In this document: piece by piece, positions 39,528 through 59,358 of the stretch | How positions within the stretch are numbered: the first letter of the stretch is position 1 | How the letters are laid out: the number at the start of each line of letters is the position of its first letter | Assembly: GCA_964291265.2 (NCBI GenBank) | Contig: OZ219747.1 | Span: 1,472,001-1,536,000 of the forward strand | Direction: 5' to 3' | Source: Alphaproteobacteria bacterium | GTDB taxonomy: Bacteria > Pseudomonadota > Alphaproteobacteria > SP197 | Length of the DNA: 64,000 nt | Notes under the pieces: model-generated | Told to the model about the DNA's origin: nothing | Databases searched by the model: none | Seen by the model: the letters and a program-made list of their open reading frames with translations, nothing else | Translations under genes and position numbers: made by a program

Positions 39528-39898
39528 CGGTCTCTCCCTTCGCGGCGCCGGAACCTGCGGCTGAGGCGGGAAGTGCCGGACCTCCCGTGTCGCGGCTCCG
39601 AATGTCCCGGAACGGTCATGTCTGAACACAACGGTCACGCTATCCGCCCGCCTGTCCATGAGCAAGGGAGAGGTACGACCAGGGCGAACATGAAGGGCAA
39701 CCCGCAGCCGTTGAAGCACCGTTCAGCTTGGCAACCCGGAGGCTCATGCTGCGAAGCGGCGCCGAGCATCGAAAGGCGCCTTGCAGCGTGAGCCGTTCGG
39801 CCCTGTCCTCCGAGAATGCCGTATCGGCCGGGAATGGTTCGGTGGAAGGATACGGAATGGGTCGCTTCGTGGTGCGGACAGGCGTTCGCGGGCGCCGC

Positions 39899-41464
39899 TC
39901 ATGCGGTCTCGGCGCGGATGTCGAGGAGGTTCCGCGCCTCGCGCCCGCAGGCCACGCCGACGAGGTGGACCGGGCCGCCGTGGTCGCGGTAGGTCTCGGC
40001 ATAGCCCCGCTCGCGCATCTGCGCCAGCGCCGCATCCAGCGCCGCAGCGCCGTCCCCCTCGCCCTCGGCCATCTTGAACTCCAGCACGAAGACCTGACCG
40101 CCGAGGCGCACCACCATGTCCGCACGACCACGGTGCGAGGCCTCCTCCACGCTCAAATTCACCCCGACCGAACGCAGGCACATGTAGAGAAGGCTCGCAT
40201 ACCAGGCCTCGTAGCGCGCCAGGTCGCCCTTCGCGTGCCACTGGTAGGGAATGCCCGCAAGCCAGGCGCGGAGCTTCTCGCCGAAGCCGGCGAAGTCGTT
40301 CGCCTCCAGCAGGGCGCAGAACTCGCGGCCCCGCTCCAGCGGCTCGACCCCCTGCCTGCCCAGCCAGGCAAGCAGTTCGTCGTTGAGGCTGAGCCGGACC
40401 TCGAGGTTGGGATAGTCCAGCCGGTAGAGGGTCCTGTGGCCCTGCTTCTCCTCCCCCGCGATGGTCAGGTAGCCGGTCTGGAAGAGCAGGGCCTCGATGG
40501 CGATGTCGTCGACATCGAACTTCGAGACCAGGGACGTGCCCGCCAGCCGTCCCTCCAGTTCCATCGGGCTCACCGACTTCTCCATCAGCATGCGGAACAG
40601 GAAGTCAGGAGATCCGGTCTCGAACCAGTAGGGACGAAACTCACGGCTCCGCAGGAACAGCAACACATCGTAGGGATTGTAGACCCGCACCCCGCCCCGC
40701 CAGTGGTAGCCGTTGTACCAGGTGCGGATCTCCTCGCGGTCCAGCCCGACCATCTCAGGGCCGAACACACGGTCGAGATCCTCCTCGCGGTAGCCGCAGA
40801 TCGTGGCAAAGCGCGGATCGAGGCTGATGTCCTCGAGGTTGTTGAGACCCGAGAACAGGCTGACTTTCGAGAACATGCTGACACCGGTGACGAAGACGAA
40901 ACGGACGTGTTCAGCGCTGTCCTTGACGATGCCGTAGAAGCCGCGCAGGTAGTCCCGGTTGGCCCTCGCAAGCTCGGGATCGTGGAGCACGTCAAGGATC
41001 GGCTTGTCGTACTCGTCCACCAGCACCACGACCTGCCGGCCGGTGGCGCCGTGCAGACGGTCAAGAAGATTCCGCAGACGCCTCGGACCGGTATCGGAGG
41101 TCCGAGCAGGCGGAAGATCATACCCGCGTTCCACGCTCTCCAGTTGCTCGATGATGTCCCCTTCGATCTCGCCCGGCTCGTTGTACTTCCCGCCGAAGCT
41201 CAGCCGCACCACCGGATGAGGTGCCGACCAGTCCCAGTGGGGGTGGATGTCGAGTCCCCGGAACAGGGGTTCGTGGCAGGCAAACAGCGACCGCAGGGTG
41301 TCGAGCAGCAGGCTCTTGCCGAAACGGCGCGGGCGGGACAGGAAGTAATGGTCACCCTGCTGGACCAAGTCTCGGATGAGAGGGGTCTTGTCGACATAGT
41401 AGCTGCCGGTCTCCCGGAGGCGCCGGAAGTCCTGGATCCCGATCGGAAGACGGCGGCGGATCAT
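39899..41464 (-). CDS. AAA-ATPase-like + C-terminal PD-(D/E)XK nuclease protein, copy 2 (521 aa)
   Basis: Same motifs; tandem paralog offset by 1937 bp. Confidence 0.92.
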   Translation of the reverse strand: MIRRRLPIGIQDFRRLRETGSYYVDKTPLIRDLVQQGDHYFLSRPRRFGKSLLLDTLRSLFACHEPLFRGLDIHPHWDWSAPHPVVRLSFGGKYNEPGEIEGDIIEQLESVERGYDLPPARTSDTGPRRLRNLLDRLHGATGRQVVVLVDEYDKPILDVLHDPELARANRDYLRGFYGIVKDSAEHVRFVFVTGVSMFSKVSLFSGLNNLEDISLDPRFATICGYREEDLDRVFGPEMVGLDREEIRTWYNGYHWRGGVRVYNPYDVLLFLRSREFRPYWFETGSPDFLFRMLMEKSVSPMELEGRLAGTSLVSKFDVDDIAIEALLFQTGYLTIAGEEKQGHRTLYRLDYPNLEVRLSLNDELLAWLGRQGVEPLERGREFCALLEANDFAGFGEKLRAWLAGIPYQWHAKGDLARYEAWYASLLYMCLRSVGVNLSVEEASHRGRADMVVRLGGQVFVLEFKMAEGEGDGAAALDAALAQMRERGYAETYRDHGGPVHLVGVACGREARNLLDIRAETA

Positions 41465-41708
41465 TGGTCTCTCCCTTCGTGACGCTGGAACCGGACGCTA
41501 CTGATGCGGACCTGTCCATGAGCAAGGGACGAAGGATATGGCCGCGACAAGGAGTGCCTGTAACCCGAACTTCCGTCAGATTTTCGAGGTTTTGGCTGCC
41601 CCGTTCGAGGGACATTACGACGAATGCACCGCCCACCCTTGCGGCGCATGGCCTCATCATGGCTGCCCGGGCAGAGCATCGCTGTCGAGCGTCGTTCCGC
41701 ATGAAATT

Positions 41709-41724
41709 CAGACATCCTGACCTC
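41709..41724. mobile_element. Orphan terminal repeat related to the IS at 42324-44770
   Basis: CAGACATCCTGACCTC, one mismatch to CAGACGTCCTGACCTC. Confidence 0.65.
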
Positions 41725-42323
41725 GTCCGCCGGAAGGTGAGACGACTTTGGAGTGTTGTGCCATCACCGGGGAGATCTCCCTCGCCTCTCCCGTGGCCGC
41801 TGCGGTGCGTTGAAGGTTGCCTCGCCCCTGGCCTTCAGGAGCTTACGCCGTACGGTAGACAGTGGACCGCGAGACATTGAAGGCCCTGACCGGATCGACA
41901 CAACTCAACGCCGACGATCGTGAAGAACCTGGCGATGCGCAGGGCCTGGGTCCGAGCGTCATGGCAGTCAAAGGGCGCGAGATCGGAGAAGCGCCATGCC
42001 TGATCATCGATGACGGCCCATGAGAAGGAAGCTGGGATGGCTGTGGCATCGACTCCCTATAGTGGCAGGAAGGATATCACGACTTGGCACACTTGTCGTC
42101 AAATGTCGAGCGGAAACCGCGCCCAAACCAAGGCCTTCCCATGCTGGAATTCGCTTGATTTCACTTGACGTCAGGCGTTCGTATGTTGCACGCGCGCGGA
42201 CATTTCCCGCTGGCCATCCCGCTTGGGATGTGCGACGGTCCGGTCATGTTGTCGATTCGCAAGCGCATGGAAGCTGTCCCGATCCATCAGGAAGCTCCTG
42301 AGGGTTTTTCCCTGTCTGAGGTT

Positions 42324-44770
42324 CAGACGTCCTGACCTCAGTGAGTTGACTTGATCAGTCCGGCCCTTTTTTTTCCAACACAATGAACGCTTTTCCCAGT
42401 TTTTTTGCTTGACAACATAGCCGTGGGGTGATCCAATATAACATGACGCCTATATTGGAGCAGTCCAGGCCATGAACACGCTCGCAATGCACCCTCCCGA
42501 AGCCGTCCAGATCGGAACCTCGTGCTTCTCCCTTGCCGACCTCGACGGACAGACCGTCTACTTCTCGAACATGGAGCCCTTCGACTGCCACGACGAGGGC
42601 GACCGGCCGGCCATGCTGCTGCGGATCGCCAGGTTCGCCAGGCACGGCGTTCCTCAAGGAGACCTGCAGGCGGCCTTCGACGTGAGCCGCGCGACCGTGC
42701 AGCGGGCGGTGAGGAAGCTCCGGGACGAGGGTGAAGCGAGCTTCTACGAGCCGCGCAAGGGCCGTGGTCTCAGCGTGATCACAGGCGAGACGGCGGCCGC
42801 GGCGAACCGTCTCCTGGCCGAGGGCATGAACGCCGCGGCACTGGCCCGGGAACTGGGGATCGCGAGATCGACGGCGTACTACAACCTCAGCAACGGCTTC
42901 ATCGGCGGCGGAGAGCGGCCGCAGGCGGCGCAAGTCGACGAGGCCACGCGATGCCCGGACGATCTTCTCGGCCGCGGCGAACGGGACCGTCGCGACAGGG
43001 TCGCGCCGATGGGGCGCGGCGCGCGCGACAGCGCCGGGCGCGTCGCGGCCTCGACGGGAGCCATGAGCGAAGCGCCGCCGCGCTTCGACGAGCCACTCTC
43101 GGCGGTCGCCGGCGGCGGCGTCCTGGCGGCGCTGCCGGCGCTGCTGAAGGAGGGTCTCCTGGAGCACGCGGACAGGTTCCTGTCGCTGCCGAAAGGGTAC
43201 TACGGGCTGACGAGCGTGCTTCTCATGCTCGCCTTCCTGTTCATGGCCCGGATCCGCAACCCCGAGGCGCTGCGCCACGAGGCGCCCGGGGAACGGGGTG
43301 CGGTCCTGGGGCTCGACCGCTGCCCGGAGGTCAAGACGCTGCGGCGCAAGATCAGGGCGCTGGCGAGCGACCCGCAGCGGGTCCGGGACTGGCAGGACGC
43401 GCTGGCGAAGGACTGGATCGCGGAGGCGCCGGATGTCTGCGCGACACTGTCGGTGGACGGGCACGTGAAGGTATATTCGGGCCGCAAGGGTCGCCTGCCG
43501 AAGCACTTCGTGTCACGTCAGAAGCTCTGTCTGCCGGCCTCGACAGGCTATTGGGTCAACGCGCTCGGCGGCCGGCCGCTCCTGTGCCTGCACAAGGACC
43601 TCGATCCGACCATGACGCACGCGCTGGAGCACGACATCCTGCCCGCGCTGGAGCGGCTCGGCCTGCCGGGGCCGGAGGCGCCGGACCTCGCCAGGGGAGA
43701 GGCGGTCGCGCCGGGGCTGACGCTGGTGTTCGACCGCGAGGGCTGGAGCCCGGCGCTGTTCGCCCGCCTCGCTCGGCGCGGGGTGGCGGTGATCACCTGG
43801 CACAAGGGGTTCCGGAGCGGTCCCTGGCCACAGGGAGAGTTCCGCACGGTCCGGGTGCCGCTCCACTCACCAGGTGGCGTCCGCACCGCCGAGGTGCGGC
43901 TCGCACAGAGACGGATCACGCTGTCCGGCGGGCCGCAGGTGCGCCAGATCCGGCGTCTTCTGGACAGCGGCCGGCAGGTGCCGCTGATCACCACGGACAT
44001 GCACACGCCCATGGAGCGGGTCGCCGGCGCGCTGTTCTCGCGCTGGTCCCAGGAGAACTTCTTCAAGTACATGCGCCAGGAGTTCGGCCTCGACGCGCTG
44101 GCCGTGCACGGCCTTGTCGAGCAGGACCCCGAAGCGCGCGTCGTCCATCCGCACTGGCGCCGCTGCGACCGCCGCATCCGCCAGCTGCGCCAGAAGCTCG
44201 GCACACTGCGCAACCGCGTCGCCGACCTGCTCAAGGGCGCCTCGTCCGACACCGCCATCACGGCCGCCGCGACGCTGCAGGACAAGATCGTGACGCTCGA
44301 CGCCGAGCACGAGGCGCTCAAGGTCCGGCGTTCAGAAATCCCGAAACATGTCACCGTGGCCGAGCTCGACGAGAACGACAGGCTCGACGCCCTGCCCTCC
44401 AGCGAGAGGCTGCTGCTCGACATCGTTCGCATGATCGCCTACCGCGCCGAAACCCGGATGATGGCCGCCGTCGCCCAGGCCCAGGGCGCAAAGCAGCGTC
44501 CGCGACGCCCCCTCGCCGAACTGTTCCAGTCGGACGCCGACATCATCCCCGATCAGGAAAACCGCGTCCTGCGGGTGCGCTTCCTCGGCACCGCCAGCAA
44601 CGCGCGCGACGCCGACATCGCCGGACTGCTCGACGAACTCAACCAGACGCGCACGACCTTCCCAGGAACCGACCTGCGCATGATCTACGAAATGCCAGAC
44701 AACCCAGCCAAACTCGGCCCAGAAGCATCAAACTGATTGGACAAATTCATAGCCGAGGTCAGGACGTCTG
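42324..44770 (+). mobile_element. Intact-looking 2447-bp insertion sequence (long-transposase, unclassified/IS4-superfamily-like)
   Basis: Perfect 16-bp terminal IRs CAGACGTCCTGACCTC (42324-42339 / 44755-44770); 5-bp TSD AGGTT at 42319-42323 and 44771-44775. Confidence 0.92.
42472..44736 (+). CDS. Putative DDE transposase, 754 aa, with N-terminal tandem HTHs
   Basis: FDVSRATVQR and LARELGIARST HTHs; SVDGH, VFDREG and RWSQENFFK as candidate D, D, E; fills the IR-bounded element. Confidence 0.88.
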   Translation: MNTLAMHPPEAVQIGTSCFSLADLDGQTVYFSNMEPFDCHDEGDRPAMLLRIARFARHGVPQGDLQAAFDVSRATVQRAVRKLRDEGEASFYEPRKGRGLSVITGETAAAANRLLAEGMNAAALARELGIARSTAYYNLSNGFIGGGERPQAAQVDEATRCPDDLLGRGERDRRDRVAPMGRGARDSAGRVAASTGAMSEAPPRFDEPLSAVAGGGVLAALPALLKEGLLEHADRFLSLPKGYYGLTSVLLMLAFLFMARIRNPEALRHEAPGERGAVLGLDRCPEVKTLRRKIRALASDPQRVRDWQDALAKDWIAEAPDVCATLSVDGHVKVYSGRKGRLPKHFVSRQKLCLPASTGYWVNALGGRPLLCLHKDLDPTMTHALEHDILPALERLGLPGPEAPDLARGEAVAPGLTLVFDREGWSPALFARLARRGVAVITWHKGFRSGPWPQGEFRTVRVPLHSPGGVRTAEVRLAQRRITLSGGPQVRQIRRLLDSGRQVPLITTDMHTPMERVAGALFSRWSQENFFKYMRQEFGLDALAVHGLVEQDPEARVVHPHWRRCDRRIRQLRQKLGTLRNRVADLLKGASSDTAITAAATLQDKIVTLDAEHEALKVRRSEIPKHVTVAELDENDRLDALPSSERLLLDIVRMIAYRAETRMMAAVAQAQGAKQRPRRPLAELFQSDADIIPDQENRVLRVRFLGTASNARDADIAGLLDELNQTRTTFPGTDLRMIYEMPDNPAKLGPEASN

Positions 44771-47186
44771 AGGTTGAGGTTCGCCTGGCGAGGCCGGAGG
44801 AGCGTCCGCTCCTGGACGCGCTGATGAACGAGTACCACGATCTCGGCTTCCGTCGCCTGGCGGGTCGCGGTCTGCGCTACCTTGCGACCTTCAGGGGCCA
44901 TTGGCTGGGTCTGGCGGCGTGGCAGAACGGCGCCTTCAAGTGCGCTCCCCGCGACCAGTGGACCGGCTGGAAGCCTTAAGCAGCAGTTCCAGCGGCTCGG
45001 GGTGGTGGCCAACAACACGCGGTTCTTGCTCCTCTCCAAGCCCGGGGTGTTTGCGAACCTTGCTTCTGAGTTTCCTTGCGTGCATGACGCGCCGGCTCTG
45101 TGACGACTGGCTGAAGGTGCACGGCCACGGGGTGCTGCTGGCGGAGACGTTGAAGCGATCCGGAGATCTTTGCCGGCACGATGTTGAAGGCTGCGGGCTG
45201 GACGTGTCTGGGTGAGACCAAGGGGTTTGCCCGCTCCAACGGGCGTTACACCGATCCTCACGGCAAGCCCAAGGATATCTACGTTACGGCACTGAGGCGC
45301 GATGCCCGGGCGCTGCTGTCGAGCCCACTGCCGCTTCCCCCCGACGTGGTGCCGCCCTCATGCCCCGAACTGGCGCCCCGGGACCCCAAGGTGCTGCGCT
45401 CGCTCTACGCTTAAGCGCGGCCATTCCCGACTTCCGCCGGGCGCAGGGAAGGAAGCATACCGCGGCATCGGTGCTCACCGTGCACGTGCTCGCCGAGTTC
45501 GCCAACATGAAGGGCTGTGTCGCCGCCGCGCAGTTCGCGCGGTCCCTGTCCCAGGAGGAGTTGGAGGCCATCGGCGCGTGGCTTAACCCGAAGACGGGGC
45601 TTCGCGAGCCCGTCTCCAAGTCCACCATCCACCGGGCCATCCACCGGGTTATCCAGTCGATCGACCCCGAGGCTCTGGAGGATGTGCTCGCCCGCTGGTC
45701 CCGGCCTCGGCTTCACCTCGCCCGTGCACTCGCCGCCGACGGCAAGCGCATCCGCGGCGCCAACCGCAACGGCGATGGCCGTCTGAGAGACCGTGGCCCT
45801 TGTCGACCATGAGACCGGCGCGCCCTTTTCCCTCCTGAACTTCAACGACGAAGGCGGCGAACTGGCGGCCATGCACGATCTCCTGGAGCGCAGCGACATC
45901 GGCGGCAAGGTGATCACCCTCGACGCGCTGCACACGACACGCCATACCGCGAAGCTGATCACACAACGCGCGGATTACGTCTTCGTCGTCAAGGGCAACG
46001 CCCCGGAGACCTTCGCCATCCTCGACAGCATCAATTGGCAAAAGGACGCCACCGGCCACTTCACGGAGCCGTTCGACAAGGCGCACGGTCGACTGGAACA
46101 GCGTTCAATCAGCGTCCTCGTCCCGCCCGCACGGTCTGATCAACTATCCGGGCGTCCGTCAGGTCGCCCGCATCACCCGCTATCGGGAGCCGTGGAAGAA
46201 AGGCCCCGGCGATGCCGGGAAGCAAGAAGAGAAGGGTTACACGGAAACCGATTACATCATCACCTCTCTCGATACGGGGGCCACATCGCCGGAAGAGTTG
46301 CTGCGACTGAACCGCCGCCACTGGGCCGTGGAAAATCTGAACCATCGACAAAGGGATTGCGTCTTCGGCGAAGACGCCTGCCTGACCCGCACCGACAACG
46401 GCCCGGCGAACCGGGCCAGCCTCAACAACATCGCGCTCGCGGTGATCTTCGCCAACCGCCGCGAGGCCGAAAGCCTCGCCGAAACCCGGCGCCGCCTACA
46501 ACTGGACCGTCGCGAGGCCATCAACGCCCTGACCCGGCCCTGAGGCGCCTTGAGCGTCCGGGGATCCCGGAACGCTGCCAGAACATCAAGAACCAGGCAT
46601 CCGGGCCGAAAACGCTGCCGGTGTCGCCATGCGGGCGGCACTGAAGCCACGGAATCCGTCCAGGACATCCCGATTCGGCCTCGATTCGTCGGCCTCGCGA
46701 AAGATCAGATGGCCGATTCGGGCGCGATTCATCGGCTTCCCGAAAAATCAGCCGTAGCGTAGGAAAGTCCTGGCGCCCAAACTCAAGCCGGAACCATGGG
46801 AAAACAGTGCCGATTCGCTTTCGGCGGCGCATGCGCATTGTGCATGTCGACCTGCATTGATGTGACGGCTTTCCTCTCGACTGCAGTGTCATGCTGGATG
46901 GCGTTTCCAACAGACTCGCTCGAAACGGATACCTCGAGGGTGCCTGTCCCGGCGGGTGGAAACGGTCATATCTCGTGGAGTTTCGAGATCGCTTCGTCAC
47001 GCACCGGCGCATGACCGGCATCCCCGTGAGGCTCACCCCGGCACCAGGCGACAGCAACCGCTGCACCAACGGGCAGAACAGCAGCTGGCTCGATGCCGCG
47101 CGTTGCGCGCAAAGCCTCGGGCCCGCTCTTGCCGTGGTTTCCTTCTTCGCTCAGACTTTTGCTCCTTGTCTGGAAAGGGGCGCGTT

Positions 47187-47963
47187 ATGGGAGGACGGCT
47201 GGACGGGAAAACGGCGCTCGTTACCGGGGGTGGACGCGGTATTGGAGCCGGTATCGCAAGGGTTTTCGCAAGCGAGGGCGCACGAGTCATGATCGCGACG
47301 CGCACCGTCCGTCGCGGAGAGGCGGTCGCCCGCCAGATCTCGAGGGCTGGCGGCGATGCTGAAGCGATGGCGATCGATGTCGCCGATGCGGGGCAGGTCA
47401 GGACGATGATCGACGATGCCCGAAAGCGCCTCGGCGCGATCGACATCGTCGCCCACAACGCAGGCGTTTTCCCGTCATCGACGATCGCGAAGATGAAGGA
47501 GGCCGAGTGGGATCACGTGCTCGATACGAACCTCAAGAGCCTCTTTCTGATTGCCAAGGCCGTTCTCCCCCACATGGTTCAGCGCCGCTACGGACGGATC
47601 GTCGTGACGTCATCGATCTCGGGTCCGCGCGTCGCCATGCCAGGCTGGAGTCACTACTGCGCCTCGAAGGCCGGTGTGAACGGCTTCATCAAGGCTGCCG
47701 CCCTGGAAGTTGCGAGGGAAGGCGTCACGATCAACGCCGTCGAGCCTGGAAACATCCTGATCCGCCGCCCCGGCTCGCGCGAGGCGCGTGAGCATGAAGC
47801 CGCAATGGTGCCCGCCATTCCCATGGGTGAACTCGGCATGCCGGAAGACATCGCCTATGCGGCGCTCTACCTGGCCAGCGATGAAGCACGTTACGTGACC
47901 GGCCAGACCATCATCGTCGACGGAGGCCAGGTTCTCCCCGAGAGCCAGTCCGGCGTGCCATAG
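47187..47963 (+). CDS. SDR family oxidoreductase (3-oxoacyl-ACP reductase-like)
   Basis: TGGGRGIG, NAG, SS, YCASK, TGQTIIVDGG. Confidence 0.93.
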   Translation: MGGRLDGKTALVTGGGRGIGAGIARVFASEGARVMIATRTVRRGEAVARQISRAGGDAEAMAIDVADAGQVRTMIDDARKRLGAIDIVAHNAGVFPSSTIAKMKEAEWDHVLDTNLKSLFLIAKAVLPHMVQRRYGRIVVTSSISGPRVAMPGWSHYCASKAGVNGFIKAAALEVAREGVTINAVEPGNILIRRPGSREAREHEAAMVPAIPMGELGMPEDIAYAALYLASDEARYVTGQTIIVDGGQVLPESQSGVP

Positions 47964-48119: not shown

Positions 48120-48513
48120 GGGCAGCGATTCCCTTGAGGGAGGATTTCGATGCCGCGCCGCTGTGTGGCTCGGCGCAATGAAGCCGGGATGGCGCGCGGA
48201 ACCGTCGACTTCTTGCGCTTGCGGTGACATGTGACGGTCATCGTCGTTCGTATGCGGCGCGCCTTGCCGGGGTGGGGCTTACGGATCATCCGGGACCGGG
48301 TTCTTCGCTTCAACGCGGAAGGCCCGGAGGGATTGAAGGATCGCAAGGCCTCAGGCCCGCCGCGCAAGTTGAATGCGAAGCAGCGTACGGCGCTGGCGGC
48401 GGTTGCGGGGAGCTGTCCGAACCCGGCGACCCACGGCGTGGTGCGTTGGCGGCGTTCAAAGAAACGTCCCGGAACGGCTGAGGTCGAGGCCCGCGTGCGG
48501 CAACAGAACAAGA
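48120..48513 (+). pseudogene. IS630-family transposase remnant, 5' part
   Basis: IIRDRVLRFNAEGPEGLKDRKASG...HGVVRWR and EARVRQQNK; continues after the inserted element. Confidence 0.8.
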
Positions 48514-48659
48514 TGTCGGCGGCGATTTAGAACGGCGGGATATTGGCGGAGAACCGCTCTTTTGGGCGCTGATCGTGTGAGTGGGTGACCACGACAGGAG
48601 AACGTGCGGCATTGGACGAAGGTCCGCCCGGTCTTTGTTTTCTGCCTATTGTTGGATCC

Positions 48660-48990
48660 CATTGGTCTTGCATTGACGTTGACGATGTCGTTCCGGTCGG
48701 CGTTTTCTGGCGTTCGGCGTTTGTGGAACGTGATGTGGGAGGGGAGCTTCAGGCTTTTGCGCGTGGTTTCGTTCTGGCGTTCTCCGTCCTCGTCGTGGTT
48801 CGTCGGGCGGGACGATCTCGAGGCTGGAGAGCTGACGGTTTCTGTTGCGCTGGGCGAAGAGGCTGCGTGCGTTGCGGTTGCGGCGGCGCAGGGTGCGGCA
48901 GGCGTCGAGTGTTTTCGGGCGGATGCTGCGACCTGTGAGCCAGTCCGGCGGCGGATCGGGCGTTGCTGCGGCTCAGCGGCTGCGGCAGTC
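48660..48990 (-). pseudogene. Internally deleted second copy of the Toprim gene
   Basis: Segments resemble 49795-49935 and 50200-50385 (e.g. TTGACGATGTCGTTCCGGTCGGCGTTTTC, GAGCCAGTCCGG). Confidence 0.65.
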
Positions 48991-49610
48991 TCGTGATGTG
49001 GTGTCGTTTGGACGGCCCGGGGGTTTCCCGGGGAGGCTGAGAGGCGCGTCGGGGTGAGACGTTCTCATTCCTGGATGGTAACGCGTGACCGCGTTCAAGG
49101 GTCTTGCGAGATTACGTGTCCCTTCCGTAGCCGCGTGGCGGTTCGATGTCCTCGAGAGCCTCGATGTCGGCATCGGCGACGATCTGCAGGCGTTCTCCGT
49201 AAGGCGTGTCACGGAGGGTTTCGGGGATGCTGTCGAGGCGGTCACGCCATTCGTCCTGCAGGGTGCGGCAGGCGTTGAGTGTTTTCGGGCGGATGCTGCG
49301 ACCTGTAAGCCAGTCCGGCCAGCGGCTGCGGCAGTCTCGTGATGCGGTGTCGTTTGGACGGCCCGGGAGTTTCCCGGGGAGGCTGAGCGGCGCGTCGGGG
49401 TGAGACGTTCTCATTCCTGGATGGTAACGCGTGACCGCGTTCAAGGGTCTTGCGGGATCACGTATCCCTTCCGTAGCCGCGTGGCGGTTCGATGTCCTCG
49501 AGGGCCTCGATGTCGGCATCGGCGACGATCTGCAGGCGTTCTCCGTAAGGCGTGTCACGGAGGGTTTCGGGGATGCTGTCGAGGCGGTCACGCCATTCGT
49601 CCTGCAGGGC
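48974..49610. repeat. ~346-bp tandem duplication inside the transposon
   Basis: 48974-49262 is nearly identical to 49320-49608; both contain the 3' end of the small ORF (…EPPRGYGRDT). Confidence 0.9.
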
Positions 49611-49748
49611 GCGCAGTTCGGCCACGGCGTCGTTCCAGCGTTGCGGTCGCGAGCGCCGGTCACGATGCTTTGGGGTGTGGACGGGAGGGATGCCGGCCTT
49701 GCGCCGTTCCCGGTATCGCCGCTGCTTTTCGGCGGGCGTGAGGGGCAT
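49458..49748 (-). CDS. Small conserved hypothetical protein (96 aa), transposon cargo
   Basis: AGGAG RBS; MPLTPAEKQRRYRER...RSRPQRWNDAVAEL...IEPPRGYGRD. Confidence 0.75.
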   Translation of the reverse strand: MPLTPAEKQRRYRERRKAGIPPVHTPKHRDRRSRPQRWNDAVAELRALQDEWRDRLDSIPETLRDTPYGERLQIVADADIEALEDIEPPRGYGRDT

Positions 49749-49774
49749 GAGTGGTCTCCTTGTGACGGACGTGG

Positions 49775-50668
49775 TCATGATCTCGCTTGTGGTTCTTTGG
49801 TCCTGGCGTTGACGACGTCGTTCCAGTCGGCGTTTTCCGGCGGTCTGCGTCTGTGGAACGAGACGTGGGAGGGGAGCTTCATCTTTTTGCGCAGGGTTTC
49901 GGCCTGTCGCTCTCCGGCCTCGTCGTGGTCCTGGGCGAGGACGATGGTCCTGACGTTGGGCAGGCTGCTTGCGGCGAGGCTGATCTGTTCGTGCTGTCTT
50001 CGCGAGGGTGCCCCGGCGGTGGAGAGGAAGGCGTGGCTGGGGGGACATTGGTCGATCTGGGCCAGGCTGAGGGCGTCGACGGCGCTTTCGGTGATGACGA
50101 GGGCCTCGAGGTCCGCGGCGGTTCCGGCGCGGACGGCGAACAGGCTTCGGGTTCCACCGGTGGCGAAGCGTTTCGGTCCGTCGGGGGGACCGATCTCGAA
50201 GCCGGTGAGCTTTCGCTTCCTGTTGCGATGGGCGAAGAGGACGCGTCCGTTGTGGTCGCGGCGGACCAGGGGGCGGCAGGTGTCGAGGGTCTCCGGGAGG
50301 ATGCCGCGCCCGGTGAGCCAGTCCGGGGCCGCATCGGGCGTTGCCGCGGCCCAGAGGCTGCGGAAGTCGCGTGGCGCGGTGTCGGGTGCTGTGAAGCGGG
50401 TGCAGATGTCGGCGAAGGCCAGTCCGCGGTTGAGCATGAAGTCGATGACGGTTCCGTTGTCTTCATCGTTCTGGGTGTTGAAGTAGACCCAGTGTCCGTT
50501 GTTGAGGCACTTCGTGACGAGCTTCGGCAGGCCGGGTGCGCACAGGACGGGGTTGGCGCGTGTCGAGGCCTGTTCGTCGCGGACGTATCCCCAGTCGGCG
50601 GCGATGCGTTCGAACGGCATGCGCTTGACGGCGTCGAAGTCGACGCGGCGGGGTTTATCGGGTTTCAC
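49775..50668 (-). CDS. DUF3991/Toprim domain primase-like protein
   Basis: DNGTVIDF, WLTGRGI, TGFE, ITESAVDALS, STAG, LAQDHDEAG (Toprim E and DxD); GTG start overlaps the istB end. Confidence 0.8.
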   Translation of the reverse strand: MKPDKPRRVDFDAVKRMPFERIAADWGYVRDEQASTRANPVLCAPGLPKLVTKCLNNGHWVYFNTQNDEDNGTVIDFMLNRGLAFADICTRFTAPDTAPRDFRSLWAAATPDAAPDWLTGRGILPETLDTCRPLVRRDHNGRVLFAHRNRKRKLTGFEIGPPDGPKRFATGGTRSLFAVRAGTAADLEALVITESAVDALSLAQIDQCPPSHAFLSTAGAPSRRQHEQISLAASSLPNVRTIVLAQDHDEAGERQAETLRKKMKLPSHVSFHRRRPPENADWNDVVNARTKEPQARS

Positions 50669-51356
50669 GCCTGAGCCGCCAGGAGTCGCTGTCGATGGAG
50701 ATGAGGGTTGCGTCGTGCATGAGCCGGTCGACGGTGCCGGCGATGCCGGAGGCGCTGGGGAAGACGCGGTCCCACTGGGCGAAGGCGAGGCTTGTCGTGA
50801 CCATGGTCGAGCGGCGCTGATAGCGCCGCGAGACGATGGCGTAGAGGATGTCGGCATGGTGGCTTTCGAGGGTCACGTAGCCGATTTCGTCGAGGACGAG
50901 CAGGCGGGGCCTGGCGAGGATCGCGAGGCGGCGGCGCAGCTCGCTGCGCGAGACGGTCTCGGCGAGTGCCTCGAGCAGTTCCGGCGCCTTCTCGAAGCGG
51001 ACGGTGTGGCCGTGCAGCAGGGCCTGGTGCGCCACGTTGGCGGCGATCATGGTCTTTCCGGTGCCCTGCCCGCCGACGAGCACGGCGTTGTCCGCACGGT
51101 CGACGAAGCCGAGGCCGAGGAGCGCTTCGACATGAGCCCGGCTGATGTCGCGCGGCCATGTCCAGTCGAAGTCCGCCAGGGGCTTGAAGGCGGGCAGCCG
51201 CGCCGCGGCGCGGCGGCGCTCGTGGCTGCGGGCCCTGCGGGCCTGTTCCTCGCCGCTGACCACCTCCTCGATCCATGCGGTCCCGGCGACCTCGTCCCAG
51301 CGTTCGACGAGCCCGTGGAGGCCGAGCGCCCGGGCACGCTCCCTGAGCTCGCTCAT
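50655..51356 (-). CDS. istB: IS21 helper ATPase IstB
   Basis: FKPLADFDW, GGQGTGKT, LVLDEIGY, RRY, VDRLMH, DSWR. Confidence 0.92.
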   Translation of the reverse strand: MSELRERARALGLHGLVERWDEVAGTAWIEEVVSGEEQARRARSHERRRAAARLPAFKPLADFDWTWPRDISRAHVEALLGLGFVDRADNAVLVGGQGTGKTMIAANVAHQALLHGHTVRFEKAPELLEALAETVSRSELRRRLAILARPRLLVLDEIGYVTLESHHADILYAIVSRRYQRRSTMVTTSLAFAQWDRVFPSASGIAGTVDRLMHDATLISIDSDSWRLRRETR

Positions 51357-52846
51357 GTCTTGTTCCTGGCGCTGGCTTCGGGCCTGTCGTAGGCGTCGAG
51401 AGCGGTCCCCCGCGGCGTCGTGCCACGGCCGCCGCGGCCGTCGTCGGCGATGCTGAGGGGCGGCAGGCCCTGCTCCCGGCGGCGCTCTTCGATGATGACG
51501 CGCACGGTTTCGGGGTGGCACGAGCCGCGCTCCAGCGCCGTGGCGACAGCCCGGTCGAGAGCGTCGGCGCCGTGCGCGTTGAGAAGCGTCTCCAGCATCC
51601 GGGCGCAGGAGGCCACGTTGCGCCCGTTGGTCCCGGCGCGCGCCAGCATCTCCTCGGCCCGCGGCACGGTGCGCAGGACCCGGTCGCGGACGCTCATGGA
51701 GCGGGCCCGCCGCTTGCCCGCGGCGATCGCCCTGGCATGCTCCGGATCGGTGACGGCCTGCTTCCTGTCGTAGGAGCGTCGGTGGCGCGCGACCTCGTCG
51801 GCGCCGTCGAGGATGCGGACCTCGTCGCGGTCGGCGACCAGCGTCAGCAGGGCCTTGGAGAAGCTACCCGGAACGCTGTAGTCGTTGGTGTCGAAGCGGG
51901 CGTGGCAGGTCTTGTCGATGCGCACCGGGCGGACCTCGTGATGCGGGAAGGGGTCGACGGGAAGGACGATCAGGTGCTCCCTCTCCCGGGCGAAGGCGTC
52001 CCGCACCAGGAGACTGTCGTCGTCCGGCCAGGGCCGCTCCGCGGCGGCGCCGAAGCACCACTCCCGAACCGCGGCGTTGAGCTCGCCGAGCGGGACCGTG
52101 ATGTCGCGCCCGGCGAAGAACCCGGTGCGCGCGAAGCGCACACGGCGTTCCACGCGGCCCTTCTCCTGCGGGCTCCTGGGCCAGGCGGCGCTCGGTTCGA
52201 AGGCATAGTGGGCCGCGAGGCCGAGCAGCATCGGATGATAGGTGACCGCCTTGCCGCGGCGCGTCACCACGGCACTCTTCAGGTTGTCGTACAGAAGCCT
52301 CCGCGGCACACCCCCGAATGCCGCGAAAGCCTCGACATGGCCTTGCAGGAAGCTGGCCATCCGCGCGTCGTGGAACAGGCTCAGGACAGTCTGGCGCGAG
52401 TAGCTGAGGGTGACGAGAAGCCCCATGAGCCTGCGCTCCGCCCGGCCAATGCGGACCTTCCCGAACTCGGCCCAGTCAACCTGCGCCTGCTCGCCCGGAA
52501 GGAAGCTCAGCCGCAGCGACGGCTCGGGCCTCTTCACCGGCCTCAGCCCGAGGCGGCGCAGGTCGTGACGGAAGTGATCCTCGCCGCCGCGGTAGCCCAG
52601 GGCCACGACCTGTCGCCAGAGCGTGCTGGCCGGAAGGTCCGGCGACGCCTCAAGACGCTCCCCGAGGAAGGCAACGAAGGGGTCGATGAGCTTGGCCCGC
52701 GGCCGCCGCTCCTGCCCCGACGCCTTGAGCGCCCGCGTCACCGTGCCGTGGTGCACGCCGAGATGCCGGGCAATCGTCCCCACAGCCCAGCCCTCGGCCC
52801 GCGACAGCCGCACGATCGTCGCCCGCGTGTCCTCGTCGATCGCCAT
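51353..52846 (-). CDS. istA: IS21 transposase IstA
   Basis: IARHLGVHHGTV HTH, PGEQAQVDW, LSYSR, FGGVP..LLYDN, KGRVER, FDTNDYSVP. Confidence 0.95.
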   Translation of the reverse strand: MAIDEDTRATIVRLSRAEGWAVGTIARHLGVHHGTVTRALKASGQERRPRAKLIDPFVAFLGERLEASPDLPASTLWRQVVALGYRGGEDHFRHDLRRLGLRPVKRPEPSLRLSFLPGEQAQVDWAEFGKVRIGRAERRLMGLLVTLSYSRQTVLSLFHDARMASFLQGHVEAFAAFGGVPRRLLYDNLKSAVVTRRGKAVTYHPMLLGLAAHYAFEPSAAWPRSPQEKGRVERRVRFARTGFFAGRDITVPLGELNAAVREWCFGAAAERPWPDDDSLLVRDAFAREREHLIVLPVDPFPHHEVRPVRIDKTCHARFDTNDYSVPGSFSKALLTLVADRDEVRILDGADEVARHRRSYDRKQAVTDPEHARAIAAGKRRARSMSVRDRVLRTVPRAEEMLARAGTNGRNVASCARMLETLLNAHGADALDRAVATALERGSCHPETVRVIIEERRREQGLPPLSIADDGRGGRGTTPRGTALDAYDRPEASARNKT

Positions 52847-52878
52847 GAACTCCCTCCCTTTGGTTCCTCAACGCCGCA

Positions 52879-53355
52879 TCACAGGTCCCTCAGCACCACA
52901 TGCGTCACGACCCGTCCGCACCGGGCGCACCGAAGCGGCGATTCGCGTCGCTCTCGCGCCTTCACAACCGCAGGTAGGGAGGTCGGCAGCAGTCGGGAAG
53001 GGTGGTCCGTAACGATTTCTTCGGAACCGGCGTCTCCAGACACCGCCGGAACGTCGCCAAGCAGCACCACAGCAGACGTCTGCGTGCCCATGATCTCGGC
53101 AAGCATCGCCGCCCTGGCCTTCAACGCACGCGCCTCCTCCGCCTTGCGGAGCCGGTAACGCCGCTGGCGGTGACGGCCCGTCTCACGGCCCCTCAGCGTG
53201 CTCTGGTAGCGACGACGCGACGCGCGGCGCCGCTCGATCCGGGACCGCTCCCTGCACTCATCGGAGCAATACACATGCCCCCGGTCACACGACCGGCAGA
53301 GAACAACCTGCCGCTGACACCGCTTGCAGTTGAACAGTCGTCCCGTCGTGCACAC
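52879..53355 (-). CDS. Cys-rich basic putative zinc-finger protein upstream of istA
   Basis: CKRC, CRSCDRGHVYCSDEC, Arg-rich helix, C-terminal CARCGR; start uncertain (ORF open to 53409). Confidence 0.75.
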   Translation of the reverse strand: MCTTGRLFNCKRCQRQVVLCRSCDRGHVYCSDECRERSRIERRRASRRRYQSTLRGRETGRHRQRRYRLRKAEEARALKARAAMLAEIMGTQTSAVVLLGDVPAVSGDAGSEEIVTDHPSRLLPTSLPAVVKARERRESPLRCARCGRVVTHVVLRDL

Positions 53356-53680
53356 GATCCGTCTCGAGAGCGGGGGTGGACCCGGACGCAAAATGGCTCG
53401 ACAATACACGGGAGTTCGGTCCCCCGTGACCGGCTCGTCCGGGTGCTGCGCCGGGGGGCGTCATCACAACTCTGCCCGGCATCGCATCGCTCTTTCTTTC
53501 GATGCCGATCTAGCATCCACCCGGGGCGGCGGCAAAAACGCCGCCCCGGGACCGGACAACACGACCCAGACCACAGGGAAAACAGACGATCCCGCGAGTG
53601 CCTCGGAACCGAAACCCTCCCGGCAACCGTCACCAAGACCGAAGCAGAGGCCGACGGAACAATCCGAACCGGACCAAAAC

Positions 53681-53772
53681 GACAATAGGAAAACGGGCGG
53701 CGCTCGGGGAGACAATCAGCCGAACACTGAACCCACGACAACAGGACGTGACAATAGGACCTGACAACAGGG
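53681..53772. repeat. GACAAYAGG direct repeats near the transposon end
   Basis: Copies at 53681, 53737, 53750 and 53763 (last three with 13-bp period). Confidence 0.8.
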
Positions 53773-53839
53773 AAGAAACACGACCCTGACAAAGCGCGGC
53801 AAATCGCCGAAATCCCGCCGTTCTATGCAGCCATCAACA

Positions 53840-54040
53840 CAAGATCACCCGGCGCTGGGCAAAACGCGGCATCCGATCGTCAACCCCCAAGGACCGGGGG
53901 ACAGGCTCCGCCTGAGTCTTCGGCGCCATCTGCCCGAACCGTGGCAAGGTCGCCGGCCTCGTCATGCTCGACGCCAACACGGAGGCGCTGAACGCCCATG
54001 CCGCCGAGATCGGCTGCGCCGTCGAACCCGGCGCCCCATG
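53840..54040 (+). pseudogene. IS630-family transposase remnant, 3' part
   Basis: ITRRWAKRG, VFGAICP, GLVMLDANTEALNAH..EI..AVEPGA. Confidence 0.8.
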
Positions 54041-55090: not shown

Positions 55091-56103
55091 GTGGCGCGCA
55101 TAGCGGTCAACGGTCTTGGGCGTATCGGCAAGCTCTTCCTGCGGGCGCTCGACGCCGCCGGATGCCTGGATCAGGTCGTGCTGGCGAATGATCGTGCAGG
55201 CGATGCCGCCTCTCACGCGCATCTCCTCGAATTCGACACCGTGCATGGGCGCTGGGATGTCCGGATCGACCACCGGGAAGGCGCCGTCGTGGTCAACAGC
55301 CATGACATCGCGGTCGCCGGGACCGGGCGCATCGAGGAGTTGCCGCTGGCGGAGCACGGCATCGACCTCGTCGTGGATTGCACGGGCTGCTTCAGGACGA
55401 TGCGGGCCCTCAGGCCCTATCTTGATGCCGGTGTCGCCAAGGTCGTGGTGTCCGCGCCCGTCAAGGATGAGCGGCGCTCAACATCGTCTTCGGAGTGAAC
55501 CACCTGCTCTACGATCCCGATCGGTACGATGTGGTGACGGCGGCGAGTTGCACCACCAACTGCCTGGCGCCTGTTGTCAGGGTGCTGCATGAGGAAATCG
55601 GCATTCGGCACGGCTCGATCACGACGATCCACAACGTCACCAACAGCCAGACCCTCGTCGACCGGCCGTACCATGACCTGCGCCGGGCGCGCTCCGCACT
55701 CATCGCGCTTGTTCCGACAACGACGGGCTCGGCAACCGCCATCGGTTTCATCTATCCCGAGCTTGCGGGGCGGCTGAACGGTCATGCGGTACGGGTGCCG
55801 CTGCTGAACGCTTCCTTGACGGACTGCGTGTTCGAATTGGCGCGGGATAGCAACGCGGAGGAGATCAACACGCTTTTCGCCAGGTGGGCCGCCGGGCCGC
55901 TCGAGGGAATTCTCGGTTACGAAGCGCGACCGCTGGTCTCGACGGATTTCCTGGACGATCCGCGTTCGGCCGTGATCGACGGTCCGGCGACCATGGTCGT
56001 GAACGGTACGCAGGCCAAGATCTATGCCTGGTACGACAGTGAATGGGGCTACAGTTGCCGCCTGGCAGACGTCGTGGGTCTCGTGTCGGACAGCCTGGAG
56101 TGA
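55091..56103 (+). pseudogene. ArsJ-associated glyceraldehyde-3-phosphate dehydrogenase, one frameshift near 55470
   Basis: NGLGRIG, LLEFDTVHGRW, then [37 protein letters not shown]; adjacent to arsJ. Confidence 0.88.
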
Positions 56104-57402
56104 CCGTGGAACCGTCGGCGAGGCGCGGTGCCGTCGCCGCCTACATCGCCGTCACTGCAGCCTACTGGTCCTTCATGCTGACCGACGGCGCGCTCCGCAT
56201 GCTGGTTCTGCTGCACTTCCACACTCTCGGTTTTTCTCCCGTCCAACTCGCCTATCTTTTCCTGCTTTATGAGTTCATGGGCATTGTGACGAACCTGTCG
56301 GCGGGTTGGGTCGCAGCCCGTTTCGGGCTCACCTCCACGCTCCATGCCGGGCTCGCCCTCCAGGTCGTTGCCCTGGCGGCGCTGACGCAGCTCGACCCGG
56401 CCTGGGCGACGGCGCTTTCGGTCGCCTTCGTGATGGCGGCACAGGGCCTCTCCGGCATCGCCAAGGACCTCTCCAAGATGAGCGCCAAGAGCGCCGTCAG
56501 GATTCTCGCCCCGGCGACCGAGCAGGGTGCGCTGTTCCGCTGGACGGCGACGCTGACGGGCTCGAAGAACGCGGTGAAGGGCCTGGGCTTCCTCCTGGGC
56601 GCTGCCTTGTTGGCCCTGGCGGGCTTCGAGGCGTCGCTGGTCGGCATGGCGGCGGTCCTGGCGGTCATCCTCGCAGCCGTCATGGTCTGCATGCCGGCAG
56701 GCCTGCCGGGCGGCGACCGGAAGGCGACGTTCGGCGAGGTGTTCTCCAGGAGTCCGCTGGTGAACCGCTTGTCTGCGGGCTCGCCTGTTCCTCTTCGGTG
56801 CGCGCGATGTGTGGCTCGTCGTGGCGCTGCCCGTCTACTTCCACACCGTGCTGTCGGACGGAACGCTTGAATCGGACCGCGCCGCATTCTTCCTCGTCGG
56901 CAGCTTCATGGCGCTCTGGATCATTGGCTACGGGGTCATGCAGGTGCTGGCGCCGAAACTGTTGCGCGCGCGGGGGAGGAGCGCGGGCGACGTCATTCGA
57001 CTGGCGCGGTTCTGGGTCGGCGTGCTGACCCTGATTCCGGCCCTGCTGGCGGTGGCGGTCGCGGCCATGGAGGGGAGGGCGTTGACGGCTCTCCTGGTCG
57101 CGGCTCTGCTCGCCTTCGGCGCCGTGTTCGCCCTCAATTCCTCGCTCCACTCCTATCTGATCCTGGTGCTCGGCCGCACCGAACGCGTGACCATGGATGT
57201 CGGCTTCTACTACATGTCCAACGCCGCCGGACGCCTTGTCGGCACGCTGCTCTCCGGGCTCGGCTTCCAGGTCGGCGGCCTCGTCGCGAGCCTCGCGGTG
57301 GCGGCGGGCATGGCGGCGACGAGCCGGCTGTTTGCCGGCATGCTCGCCCGTCGCGCCTGCAGCGAGGAGGAACTGGGACATGAAACCGATGCACGGGAGT
57401 GA
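56100..57402 (+). pseudogene. arsJ: Organoarsenical efflux MFS transporter ArsJ, one frameshift near 56778
   Basis: YWSFMLTDGALRMLVLLHFH, KDLSKMSAKSAV, LTGSKNAVKG; second frame FGARDVWLVVALPVY, NSSLHSYLI, VGFYYMSNAAGRLVGT. Confidence 0.9.
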
Positions 57403-57584
57403 GTCGCTGACATCTGGACTTGCGCTCCGGACATATTTCGGCGGAGCATACCTTCCGGCACCTGACGCGTGTGTGAGGCGTGTATCGATGGAGGGCGTTA
57501 CGGAGATCAGGCCGGTGCGACGTTTCCCTGACCTCTGTTTCGTTCCCGATCGCACATCCCGGCGGCGCTCCCCCGGTCGTCGGC

Positions 57585-57860
57585 ACGCCGTTTGATGTGC
57601 ACCCTGCGCGGCTTGGCGTGGACATCGGGAGCATCACGGCAGGATTCGTGTTCGACAGTATTCTTGCCGGCGGCCTTGTCGCACGATATACGTCTGCCAC
57701 CATGACGCTGGCCGGGCGGGGCGTCGCTTGCCTCGGCCTGCTCCCCGAATCGTCGGTCTTGGCGTCAGGGTTCCTGCATGAGCTGATCTTGTTCGGTGCT
57801 TGCGTTTGCGTCGGCAACGGCATCATCATGCCGAGCAGGAGTTCCGGCGCCATGTCGGCA
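57585..57860 (+). pseudogene. Bcr/CflA-like MFS transporter internal fragment
   Basis: IGSITAGFVF..LAG...LAGRGVACLGL...LFGACVCVGNG.IMPS..GAMS. Confidence 0.55.
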
Positions 57861-58029
57861 CCACCCACCGGTTCGAGCGAGACCGGGCCGGGGGCCTCCA
57901 GCAGGCTTGGCTGATCTGGTGTCGGGAGCCCGAGTTATGAGCGACCGGCAAGCGCCGGCAGCGCCTTCGCCGCCGACACACACGGACATACCGCAAGCGT
58001 TTTCGCAGTTTCTGACGGGAGACCGGACG

Positions 58030-59358
58030 ATGCCGGATACACGAACGATCAGGGTTCTGCCGGTCAACGACACGACCAACGGATGGAGCCGCATTCTCGG
58101 GCCACGGACACCGCGTTCTCCGCTTGCCGGGGATGTGGTGGCCGATTGGGTGGTCGTGGGAGCGGGTTGGGCCGGGCTGGCGGCGGCGCGGCGCCTCGCC
58201 GAAAACAGGCCGGATGACAGCGTCATCCTTCTCGATGCCGGCGAAGCGGGGGAGAATGCATCGGGACGCAACAGCGGCTTTGCCATCGACCTTCCTCACA
58301 ACGTCGGCGATTCGCTGGCTGAACTCGAGGGCAGCCAGCGCTTCATGGCCCTGGCGCGCGCTGCCATCGATCACCTCGACGGAGCGGTCCGGGACCACGG
58401 CATCGCCTGCGACTGGAGCCGGCGCGGCAAGTACCATACCGCCCGTTCGGAACGCGGAAGAAGGGAGATTCTCGAGCCCTTCGCCCGGGAACTCGAGGCC
58501 CTCGGCGAGCCCTTCCGCTGGCTGGACCGGGATGAGCTTGCGGGCGAGGTCGGGACATCGGCGTTCCACGCGGCGGTCTACACGCCAGGCTGTGTCCTCT
58601 TCAATCCCGCGGCGCTGACCCGTGGTCTGGCCGACCACCTTCCCGAGGGAGTCCGCCTCTGCGAGAACACGCCTGTCATATCGATGACCTTGCGAAACGG
58701 GGTGGAGCTCGCCACCCCGGGAGGCACCGTCCGCGCGGCGCGCATGATTCTCGCCACCAACGGCTTTGCCGGCGAGTTCGGGTTCTTCCGGCGCCGCCTC
58801 GTGCCGATCGCTGCCCATGCCAGCCTGACGCGCGTCCTGAACGAGGCGGAGCGCCTGGCGCTCGGAGGCAAGGACGACTGGGGAATCACGCCGGCCAACG
58901 CCATTGCCGGCATCACCATGCGGTTCACCAGGGATCATCGGATCCTGATCCGCCAGGGCTTCCGCTACGCACCCGAATTCCGCGTCACGAGAGCCGAACA
59001 GATGGCGGCGCGGCGCGCTCACGAGGCGCGTTTCCGGTCCCGGTTCCCCATGCTCGGCGACGTGACGATGGAGCATACCTGGACCGGGTTCATATGCCTG
59101 TCACGCAACGGTGCGCCGGGCTTCGGTCAGGTCGCCGGCCATGTCTGGGCTGCCGTTTGCCAGAACGCGGTCGGTGTCACCAAGGGTACCATCAGCGGGT
59201 TGCTCGCCGCCGACATGGCCAGTGGGCGCGACAACGGCCTCATCGCCGACATGGAGAGTCTCGGGAGTCCCCGGGTGCTTCCTCCCGCCTTGCTCACGCG
59301 TCTTGGCGTCAGGCTGCGCCTGGCCAGGGAAATCTGGTTCAACCGGCACGAGAAATAG
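58030..59358 (+). CDS. FAD-dependent oxidoreductase (DAO/PuuB-like family)
   Basis: VVGAGWAGL, ASGRNSGF, LATNGF, WTG, GVTKGT. Confidence 0.9.
   Translation: MPDTRTIRVLPVNDTTNGWSRILGPRTPRSPLAGDVVADWVVVGAGWAGLAAARRLAENRPDDSVILLDAGEAGENASGRNSGFAIDLPHNVGDSLAELEGSQRFMALARAAIDHLDGAVRDHGIACDWSRRGKYHTARSERGRREILEPFARELEALGEPFRWLDRDELAGEVGTSAFHAAVYTPGCVLFNPAALTRGLADHLPEGVRLCENTPVISMTLRNGVELATPGGTVRAARMILATNGFAGEFGFFRRRLVPIAAHASLTRVLNEAERLALGGKDDWGITPANAIAGITMRFTRDHRILIRQGFRYAPEFRVTRAEQMAARRAHEARFRSRFPMLGDVTMEHTWTGFICLSRNGAPGFGQVAGHVWAAVCQNAVGVTKGTISGLLAADMASGRDNGLIADMESLGSPRVLPPALLTRLGVRLRLAREIWFNRHEK

Follow-up and report, generated by a model that had tools for sequence, protein, structure and literature searches.

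An IS21-derived transposon of an alphaproteobacterial genome with a DUF3991/Toprim primase-like gene behind istB

The stretch analyzed here (hereafter the window) comprises 64,000 nucleotides of an Alphaproteobacteria bacterium (assembly GCA_964291265.2, contig OZ219747.1, positions 1,472,001 to 1,536,000). It contains an IS21-type element of 5,326 bp at 48514-53839, starting with TGT at 48514 and finishing with ACA at 53839. The element holds five open reading frames (ORFs), all on the minus strand: a Cys-rich gene, istA, istB, a DUF3991/Toprim primase-like gene, and a gene for a 96-aa protein. The reading we favor, with slightly more doubt than confidence, is that this is a multi-copy IS21-type transposon whose plasmid-captured DUF3991/Toprim gene is kept behind istB because its product primes synthesis on the single-stranded transposition intermediate of the element.

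The genome (4.83 Mb, two contigs) harbors 30 full-length copies of the element, 98.1-100% identical and amounting to 3.3% of the genome, besides partial copies. The boundaries are not due to chance, since all 30 end at exactly the same bases. On the gene strand (minus), the left terminal inverted repeat, with its TGT start, lies at 53791-53839, as found by repeat comparison and copy alignment, and the right one, with its ACA end, at 48514-48562; there, the last 60 bp are 98.3-100% alike across the full copies. The inverted arms (48528-48562 and 53791-53825) are 77% complementary over 35 nt, and the repeats end in CA, a feature of the IS21 family. The unstranded target-site duplication CAAGA flanks the element: the left copy (48509-48513) was read at both flanks and stands as a single copy in an empty-site contig, and the right copy (53840-53844) was read from the sequence. 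The insertion target is an IS630-type transposase relic on the plus strand, whose 5' part occupies 48231-48508 (helix-turn-helix match and translation) and which resumes after 53844. In the left flank, the helix-turn-helix match is to NF033545 (E 2e-4; IS630-type transposase, broken). In the right flank, a frame translated separately continues past the element, and from its motif we take it to be IS630-like.

The empty-site contig, 294 bp long and from run X2, spans the flanks without the element (window 48367-53991); therefore, either the site is polymorphic or an empty sister of it exists. Among the 30 copies, 26 have target duplications of 5-7 bp (5 bp in 21, 6 bp in four, 7 bp in one) and four have none. 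No copy has a broken Cys-rich, istA, or istB frame; the Toprim frame is broken in one copy and the 96-aa frame in three. The copies are mosaics of shared variants. The element has been active recently. An assembly artifact was considered and rejected, because the target duplications are distinct and contigs from three runs match. Copies are found within other repeats more often than random sites (16/30 versus 40/150, Fisher p 0.008), and four of the 30 sit within other copies of the same element (C2:301618, 4059791, 4066882, and 4238189), so target immunity looks weak.

istA (51353-52846, minus) encodes a DDE transposase of 497 aa with D124, D187, and E233 conserved (NF033546, 222 bits; cut-off 160), and istB (50655-51356, minus) an AAA+ helper ATPase of 233 aa (PF01695, 171 bits against a cut-off of 24.1; NF038214, 191 bits, just below the cut-off of 200). 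The two overlap by 4 bp, and the DUF3991/Toprim gene (49775-50668, minus) overlaps istB by 14 bp, provided that its GTG start is correct. A first-pass annotation of the window had already described the TGT...ACA ends with CAAGA inside an IS630 relic, and a co-oriented gene string with the 4-bp overlap and Toprim overlapping the istB end; both descriptions hold. In the accessible parts of PMC10122671 and PMC11208146, IS21 and IS5376 are described with the same IstA DDE transposase, IstB AAA+ ATPase, inverted repeats ending in CA, and a target duplication that is mostly 5 bp with no clear target sequence. Unlike them, the present element is 5.3 kb long and has five ORFs rather than two, with a Cys-rich gene upstream and a fixed, co-diverging primase-like gene. 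Because more than two ORFs lie between the ends (five here, four in relatives), the canonical two-ORF plan does not apply, and we class the element as an IS21-derived transposon: it works like IS21 without being a two-gene member. Pfam and NCBIfam profile scans of the five ORFs found no relaxase or secretion gene, no DNA polymerase family, and no helicase or initiator. For the element, no Rfam match, sigma-70 site, or excess of terminators was found.

The Toprim gene is a fixed component of one IstA clade. A Toprim-first scan of genome contigs returned 192 relatives, of which 80 were kept, corresponding to 76 loci (54 close and 22 distant, at 25-37% identity). istB, whole or as its 3' part, lies directly upstream of Toprim in 50/54 close loci, the remaining four being fragments. 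No istA or istB match was found in the 22 distant loci; ORF maps of 16 distant loci show relaxase-like fusions, with plasmid-like genes or genes like those of integrative and conjugative elements in several, some of the gene names being presumptive. Toprim lies within TGT...ACA ends in nine other assemblies where ends could be drawn (elements of 4.0-4.6 kb), and in the seven elements measured its distance to the right end is 156-683 bp. Toprim-first and IstA-first finds together place the istB-Toprim pair in 18 other assemblies, two as partial relics.

In the IstA-first searches, among 101 genomes around G433, Toprim is present at 16/16 places in five genomes, and nine of these places belong to genomes not returned by the Toprim scan (G437, G438, and G441). 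In G432, istB-Toprim stands directly behind IstA at 27/28 places; at the remaining one, a further insertion interrupts the locus, and Toprim is still found downstream of it. Within the order (33 genomes), G012, G021, and G028 have clade-level IstA, in each case accompanied by Toprim (truncated in one G021 copy), and G025 has a truncated clade-level IstA piece that lacks istB. The IstA-first searches turned up no intact clade member devoid of Toprim. A class-wide sample of 400 genomes contained no clade-level IstA, its sole match (G270) being of the small-ORF type, and a phylum-wide sample of 400 genomes gave distant Toprim matches in seven, none adjoining istB or ExeA. The clade spans several alphaproteobacterial groups.

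Outside the clade, we considered an outgroup set of 82 loci, formed by the best 80 metagenome IstA relatives (40-49% identity) and two genome loci. The Cys-rich gene is present in 72 of these loci without Toprim, and a small ORF of ~70 aa is matched behind istB in 32; a profile re-scan produced one weak Toprim match, on the opposite strand. Since the outgroup has the Cys-rich gene and the small ORF and lacks Toprim, the ancestral plan is Cys-rich ORF, istA, istB, and small ORF, from which one branch departs by having Toprim at the fourth position. The nearest IstA outside the clade (42-47%) belongs to a four-gene IS21 subgroup of cultured Proteobacteria (L112-L116), with Cys-rich ORF, istA, istB, and an ORF of 61-73 aa, in place of which the present element has its 297-aa Toprim gene. 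More broadly, L112-L196 form a widespread IS21 subgroup in which istA is preceded by an unannotated ORF with six Cys and istB is followed by an ORF of 55-85 aa, neither ORF having a Pfam family.

In the IstA tree, the 11 Toprim carriers among 97 rows lie on one side of a branch that separates them from the 86 others (SH-aLRT 100, quick search); L078, L083, L084, and L085, with no piece of 300 aa, were left out. Once G437, G438, and a partial L084 are added, 13 carriers group together (100) and L084 falls outside (FastTree). The main carrier clade is monophyletic. The istA and Toprim distance matrices are correlated (r 0.86, 0/5000 permutations as high). Against the six nearest elements, the ratio of nonsynonymous to synonymous substitution rates (dN/dS) is 0.33-0.43 for Toprim and 0.29-0.38 for istA. 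Nei-Gojobori values over 13 pairs are 0.21-0.55 for Toprim, 0.26-0.58 for istA, and 0.12-0.60 for istB, and over 11 pairs 0.19-0.70 for the Cys-rich gene; the pairs are not independent and the ratios are inflated by GC bias, so that only the comparison between genes counts. By this comparison, Toprim is under purifying selection as strong as that on istA.

The first-pass annotation had regarded Toprim as something other than random cargo. This agrees with the fixation of the gene throughout one IstA clade, its position within the element ends, its co-divergence with istAB, the purifying selection on it, its retained acidic residues, and its relaxase-linked relatives on plasmids. The istA-istB-Toprim synteny and the congruent phylogenies that it anticipated were found in the close and IstA-first loci and in the matrix correlation given above. 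The opposite expectation, closest istAB relatives devoid of Toprim, fails for the clade members, which keep the gene, and is true of the IstA relatives at 40-49%, which do not.

The Toprim protein (297 aa, with acidic residues E194, D198, D247, D249, D281, and D284) matches Toprim_2 (PF13155, 50.2 bits; cut-off 22.1), and its DUF3991 domain (PF13154) scores 20.7 bits, below the cut-off of 24.5, with 26-29 bits in close relatives. A structure model built from a 47-sequence alignment (predicted local distance difference test, pLDDT, 92) matches DnaG, T7 gp4, and Twinkle in a Foldseek search. In this predicted model, residues 100-292 superpose on the T7 gp4 primase with Z 15.6 and a root mean square deviation of 3.2 Å over 176 residues; E. 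coli DnaG gives Z 12.9, and topoisomerases align with the Toprim core alone (~90 residues). A profile search of solved structures ranked T7 gp4 first (E 1e-9). E194, D247, D249, and D281 are invariant across the 47 aligned relatives, and these four plus D198 are all present in the protein of this element. Five acidic positions are kept in 14/14 clade members and the first five acids in 16/16 further element-borne copies. The acidic residues of the active site are intact, and the protein models as a primase core of the T7/DnaG type. The profile and structure checks predict the primase-core fold, and the catalytically dead Toprim that had been envisaged as a refutation is not what the acidic set suggests.

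The likeness to T7 gp4 and to the DnaG RNA-polymerase domain is one of the catalytic core fold, with the acids aligned. Differently from these enzymes, the Toprim protein lacks both conserved Cys/His zinc ligands and a helicase or helicase-binding domain, and its basic residues are altered; without zinc ligands, it is called here "primase-like" and not DnaG. The N-terminal domain may bear a likeness to a zinc-less DnaG zinc-binding fold, on the basis of long Foldseek alignments. This region has scattered Cys (0-3) in clade members, and a single-sequence model of residues 5-95 reached pLDDT 46, too poor for structure search.

With 1,027 representatives at E 1e-30, DUF3991/Toprim is a large family; of 41 long members scanned, at least 18 contain a relaxase domain. 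Examples from plasmids are fused to MobV, stand behind MobC, or adjoin type IV secretion genes. These proteins, free or fused to MOBP/MOBQ/MOBV relaxases, share the domain set and acidic motifs at 25-38% identity; here, instead, the protein is stand-alone within a transposon, without relaxase or secretion genes. A rhizobial DUF3991 gene rises together with tra genes (PMC13055273, in its Table 1). The Toprim gene was likely captured from a conjugative plasmid.

A second Toprim subfamily is carried by Mu-like/ExeA transposons, some of which have a RepA-like helicase as well, and by another IS21 lineage. DUF3991 matches occur at 63 places in 8/61 genomes, and 16 places were chosen from six of these eight genomes. 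All 16 adjoin a DDE transposase and/or its AAA+ ATPase (one without a transposase match, one without an ATPase match), and 6/16 also have an AAA_25 RepA-like helicase gene; among 10 other regions from the order, four have no transposase match. One such element, of 5.16 kb with 5-bp duplications, lies in the same genome as the window (C2:47062-52221, L251), which has six further places of this kind. It encodes a Cys-rich ORF, an rve DDE transposase (505 aa), an ExeA-like ATPase, an AAA_25 RepA-like helicase, and a second DUF3991/Toprim, 33% identical to the first; there are four whole copies, one split by the IS21 element, and seven Toprim matches. This helicase-primase element has relatives in G431, G498, G496, and G026, and transposase-ATPase-Toprim elements of 4.0-4.2 kb occur in G024 (15 matches), G430, G495, and G498. 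L031-L033 (G024), L365-L370, and L373-L374 are multi-copy loci with a Cys-rich ORF, DDE transposase, ExeA-like ATPase, Toprim, and TGT...ACA-type ends. Cultured relatives of the second transposase (47-51%) have a small ORF and no annotated Toprim.

A second IS21 lineage, with IstA 31% identical to that of the present element, is found in G431 (3.4 kb, five copies) and G430. Its loci L310-L316, L288, and L378 (G431, G430, G026, and G914) are 3.4-3.5 kb long and multi-copy, with Toprim inside the ends. In the Toprim tree (FastTree; long branches flagged), rows from plasmids stand between the two subfamilies, each of which is a clade of its own, a pattern suggestive of two or more captures. The recurrence points to repeated capture by ATPase-using transposons. 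It is possible, and we regard it as speculative, that ATPase-using transposons (two IS21 lineages, several Mu-like/ExeA) took over a conjugative primase more than once, in some cases along with a RepA-like helicase, to serve as a primosome for the replication step of their transposition; the present element would be the primase-only form of such self-priming bacterial transposons.

A copy-out/paste-in pathway has been proposed for IS21 (PMC11208146, part consulted). In the accessible part of the IEE study (10.1101/2023.06.07.543989), copy-out is described as starting from a freed flank 3'-OH that primes synthesis of a circular copy, and IEE provides a precedent for a primase acting at this step. 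In IS21, IstA cuts one strand at the element ends, IstB captures the target, and in the proposed pathway one new strand is primed by the freed flank 3'-OH. Under the favored reading, this synthesis would displace the bridged strand, whose conversion into a double-stranded circle would require de novo priming. The Toprim protein, whose plasmid relatives are fused to or adjoin relaxases that produce single-stranded DNA, would supply the primer and so speed up the step or lessen its reliance on the primosome of the host. Conjugative systems act on single strands, and a primase derived from them would fit this need. In IS911, circle formation may require the host DnaG. Toprim would then be an enhancer of transposition and not a requirement, since relatives without it exist.

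Several observations weigh against priming of the intermediate. IstA and IstB suffice for in vitro integration of pre-cleaved ends, according to the consulted part of PMC10122671. Among the 40-49% IstA relatives, Toprim is present in 0/51 loci with room behind istB; thus, the gene is not needed for IS21 transposition generally. It is also present in 0/5 plasmid IstA loci. In the second IS21 lineage, Toprim is convergent to istB and not operonic. The IstB tree (FastTree) puts L083/L084 outside the main clade, and their Toprim is sister to that of the main clade; the same Toprim clade on another IstA/IstB means that the gene can be swapped, with at least one swap of the backbone. All Toprim carriers are uncultured genomes, and their kin are not independent. 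No end-to-start junction was found among the three joints listed for three runs, which consist of contigs only and cannot show absence, and no abutted ends were found in the assembly, which cannot show the absence of circles. In the protein, D198 is replaced by N in 5/14 clade members, residues 1-95 contain no conserved Cys in the 47 sequences and the N-terminal domain no conserved Cys/His zinc ligands, and a family-wide Glu (E158) aligns with a T7 lysine. That lysine is important in T7.

These last features would suit a non-catalytic accessory of transposition, able to do without catalysis. Such a protein would attach to single-stranded or forked DNA in the donor or strand-transfer complex, or protect it, or else bring in replication proteins of the host. 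Twinkle, one of the top matches of the predicted model, has lost its priming ability, coherently with such a role. The four acids invariant in all 47 relatives, and those kept throughout the clade and the further element-borne copies, argue against this role, which we consider unlikely.

Slightly less probable still is that Toprim is a fixed passenger, captured once behind istB and retained through hitchhiking or because it serves the host cell in a way unrelated to transposition (repair, replication restart, or defense). Indeed, the slot behind istB carries other small genes in relatives, and these genomes shuffle 3' modules, as with the decayed Toprim in the element tail, the 96-aa gene beside unrelated recombinases, and a truncated Toprim adjoining Mu-type genes in L034. 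Furthermore, the same host groups recur, so that a shared gene pool could account for the recurrence. However, selection on Toprim is as strong as on istA, 29/30 copies are intact while a host benefit needs one, no intact clade member lacking the gene emerged from the IstA-first searches, and the tie to ATPase-using transposons is recurrent.

A helper of horizontal transfer, in which the primase makes the element double-stranded after single-strand entry into a new cell (by conjugation in a carrier replicon, or by transformation), appears improbable. The relaxase fusions and type IV secretion neighbors of the plasmid relatives, the rhizobial gene rising with tra genes (PMC13055273, as above), and the presence of the clade across several alphaproteobacterial groups are in its favor; the five ORFs include no relaxase or secretion gene, however, and most of the spread observed is intragenomic (30 copies in the present genome and 28 IstA places in G432). 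Finally, a mini-replicon, with excised circles replicating for several rounds extrachromosomally from their own primase, is very improbable: the helicase plus primase of the Mu-like sister elements resembles a plasmid primosome, and core contigs of the element in run X1 are ~120x deeper than the flanks against 36-37 assembled copies, but this element has no helicase or initiator gene, no junction contig is among the joints listed, and the contig depth (~20-60x over the flanks in X2) is uncalibrated, is a lead and not a copy number, and may include other organisms.

With respect to other systems, casposons, polintons, and pipolins are mobile elements with their own DNA-synthesis enzyme, a DNA polymerase; the present element has only a primase-like gene and an IS21 transposase, with no polymerase. 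In the part consulted of 10.1101/2023.06.07.543989, IEE is likewise a primase-type enzyme proposed to act at copy-out replication of circle-forming insertion sequences, but it is an AEP PrimPol-helicase encoded outside the insertion sequence and causes its loss, whereas Toprim is encoded by the element. We found no description of an IS21 with a Toprim or primase gene in the literature, subscription journals, supplements, and ISfinder/TnCentral being outside the search, so that a named entry may exist; the same literature search found no biochemical study of the DUF3991/Toprim family. IS21 is a structural model of ATPase-driven transposition, for which the copy-out step is only proposed (PMC11208146, part consulted), and an element with its own primase-like protein makes this step directly testable. 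If the gene does prime the intermediate, some insertion sequences would be partly self-replicating, which would help explain bursts such as the 30 copies, and the uncharacterized DUF3991/Toprim family would gain its first function outside plasmids.

The remaining parts of the element are less constant. The Cys-rich basic ORF (52879-53409, minus; start uncertain) has six conserved Cys followed by an Arg-rich helix and no Pfam or NCBIfam match. Its zinc finger was considered as the missing zinc domain of the primase and rejected, since the gene occurs widely without Toprim. Nor do the data support the zinc-finger gene as a partner of Toprim, since it is general to a wide IS21 subgroup. The 96-aa ORF (49458-49748, minus), recognized on the ORF map and without a Pfam family, was found in just one other clade element and is a variable passenger. 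Its homologs at C2:2592786-2593076, 2595024-2595314, and 2535263-2535553, and at L031:15214-15498, adjoin IS110-like transposase and large serine-recombinase genes, as a recurrent passenger would. The non-coding tail (48563-49457, minus) has 52 indel columns among the 30 copies and contains decayed duplicates: pieces of the Toprim gene (48674-48816 and 48797-49006, 81-83% identical) and a copy of the 3' end of the 96-aa gene (97% identical). The 96-aa gene and the left 0.9 kb are therefore variable or decayed.

Elsewhere in the window, 38000-46700 is a cluster of other multi-copy elements (3-12 copies by 31-mers), including a 754-aa Transposase_29 gene (42472-44736) and a broken ISAs1-type element with a DruA-like leader (44737-46644). 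The intervals 46956-47963 and 55091-59358 hold ordinary neighbors, which from their motifs we take to be a short-chain dehydrogenase, a frameshifted GAPDH-like gene with an MFS transporter, and an FAD oxidoreductase.

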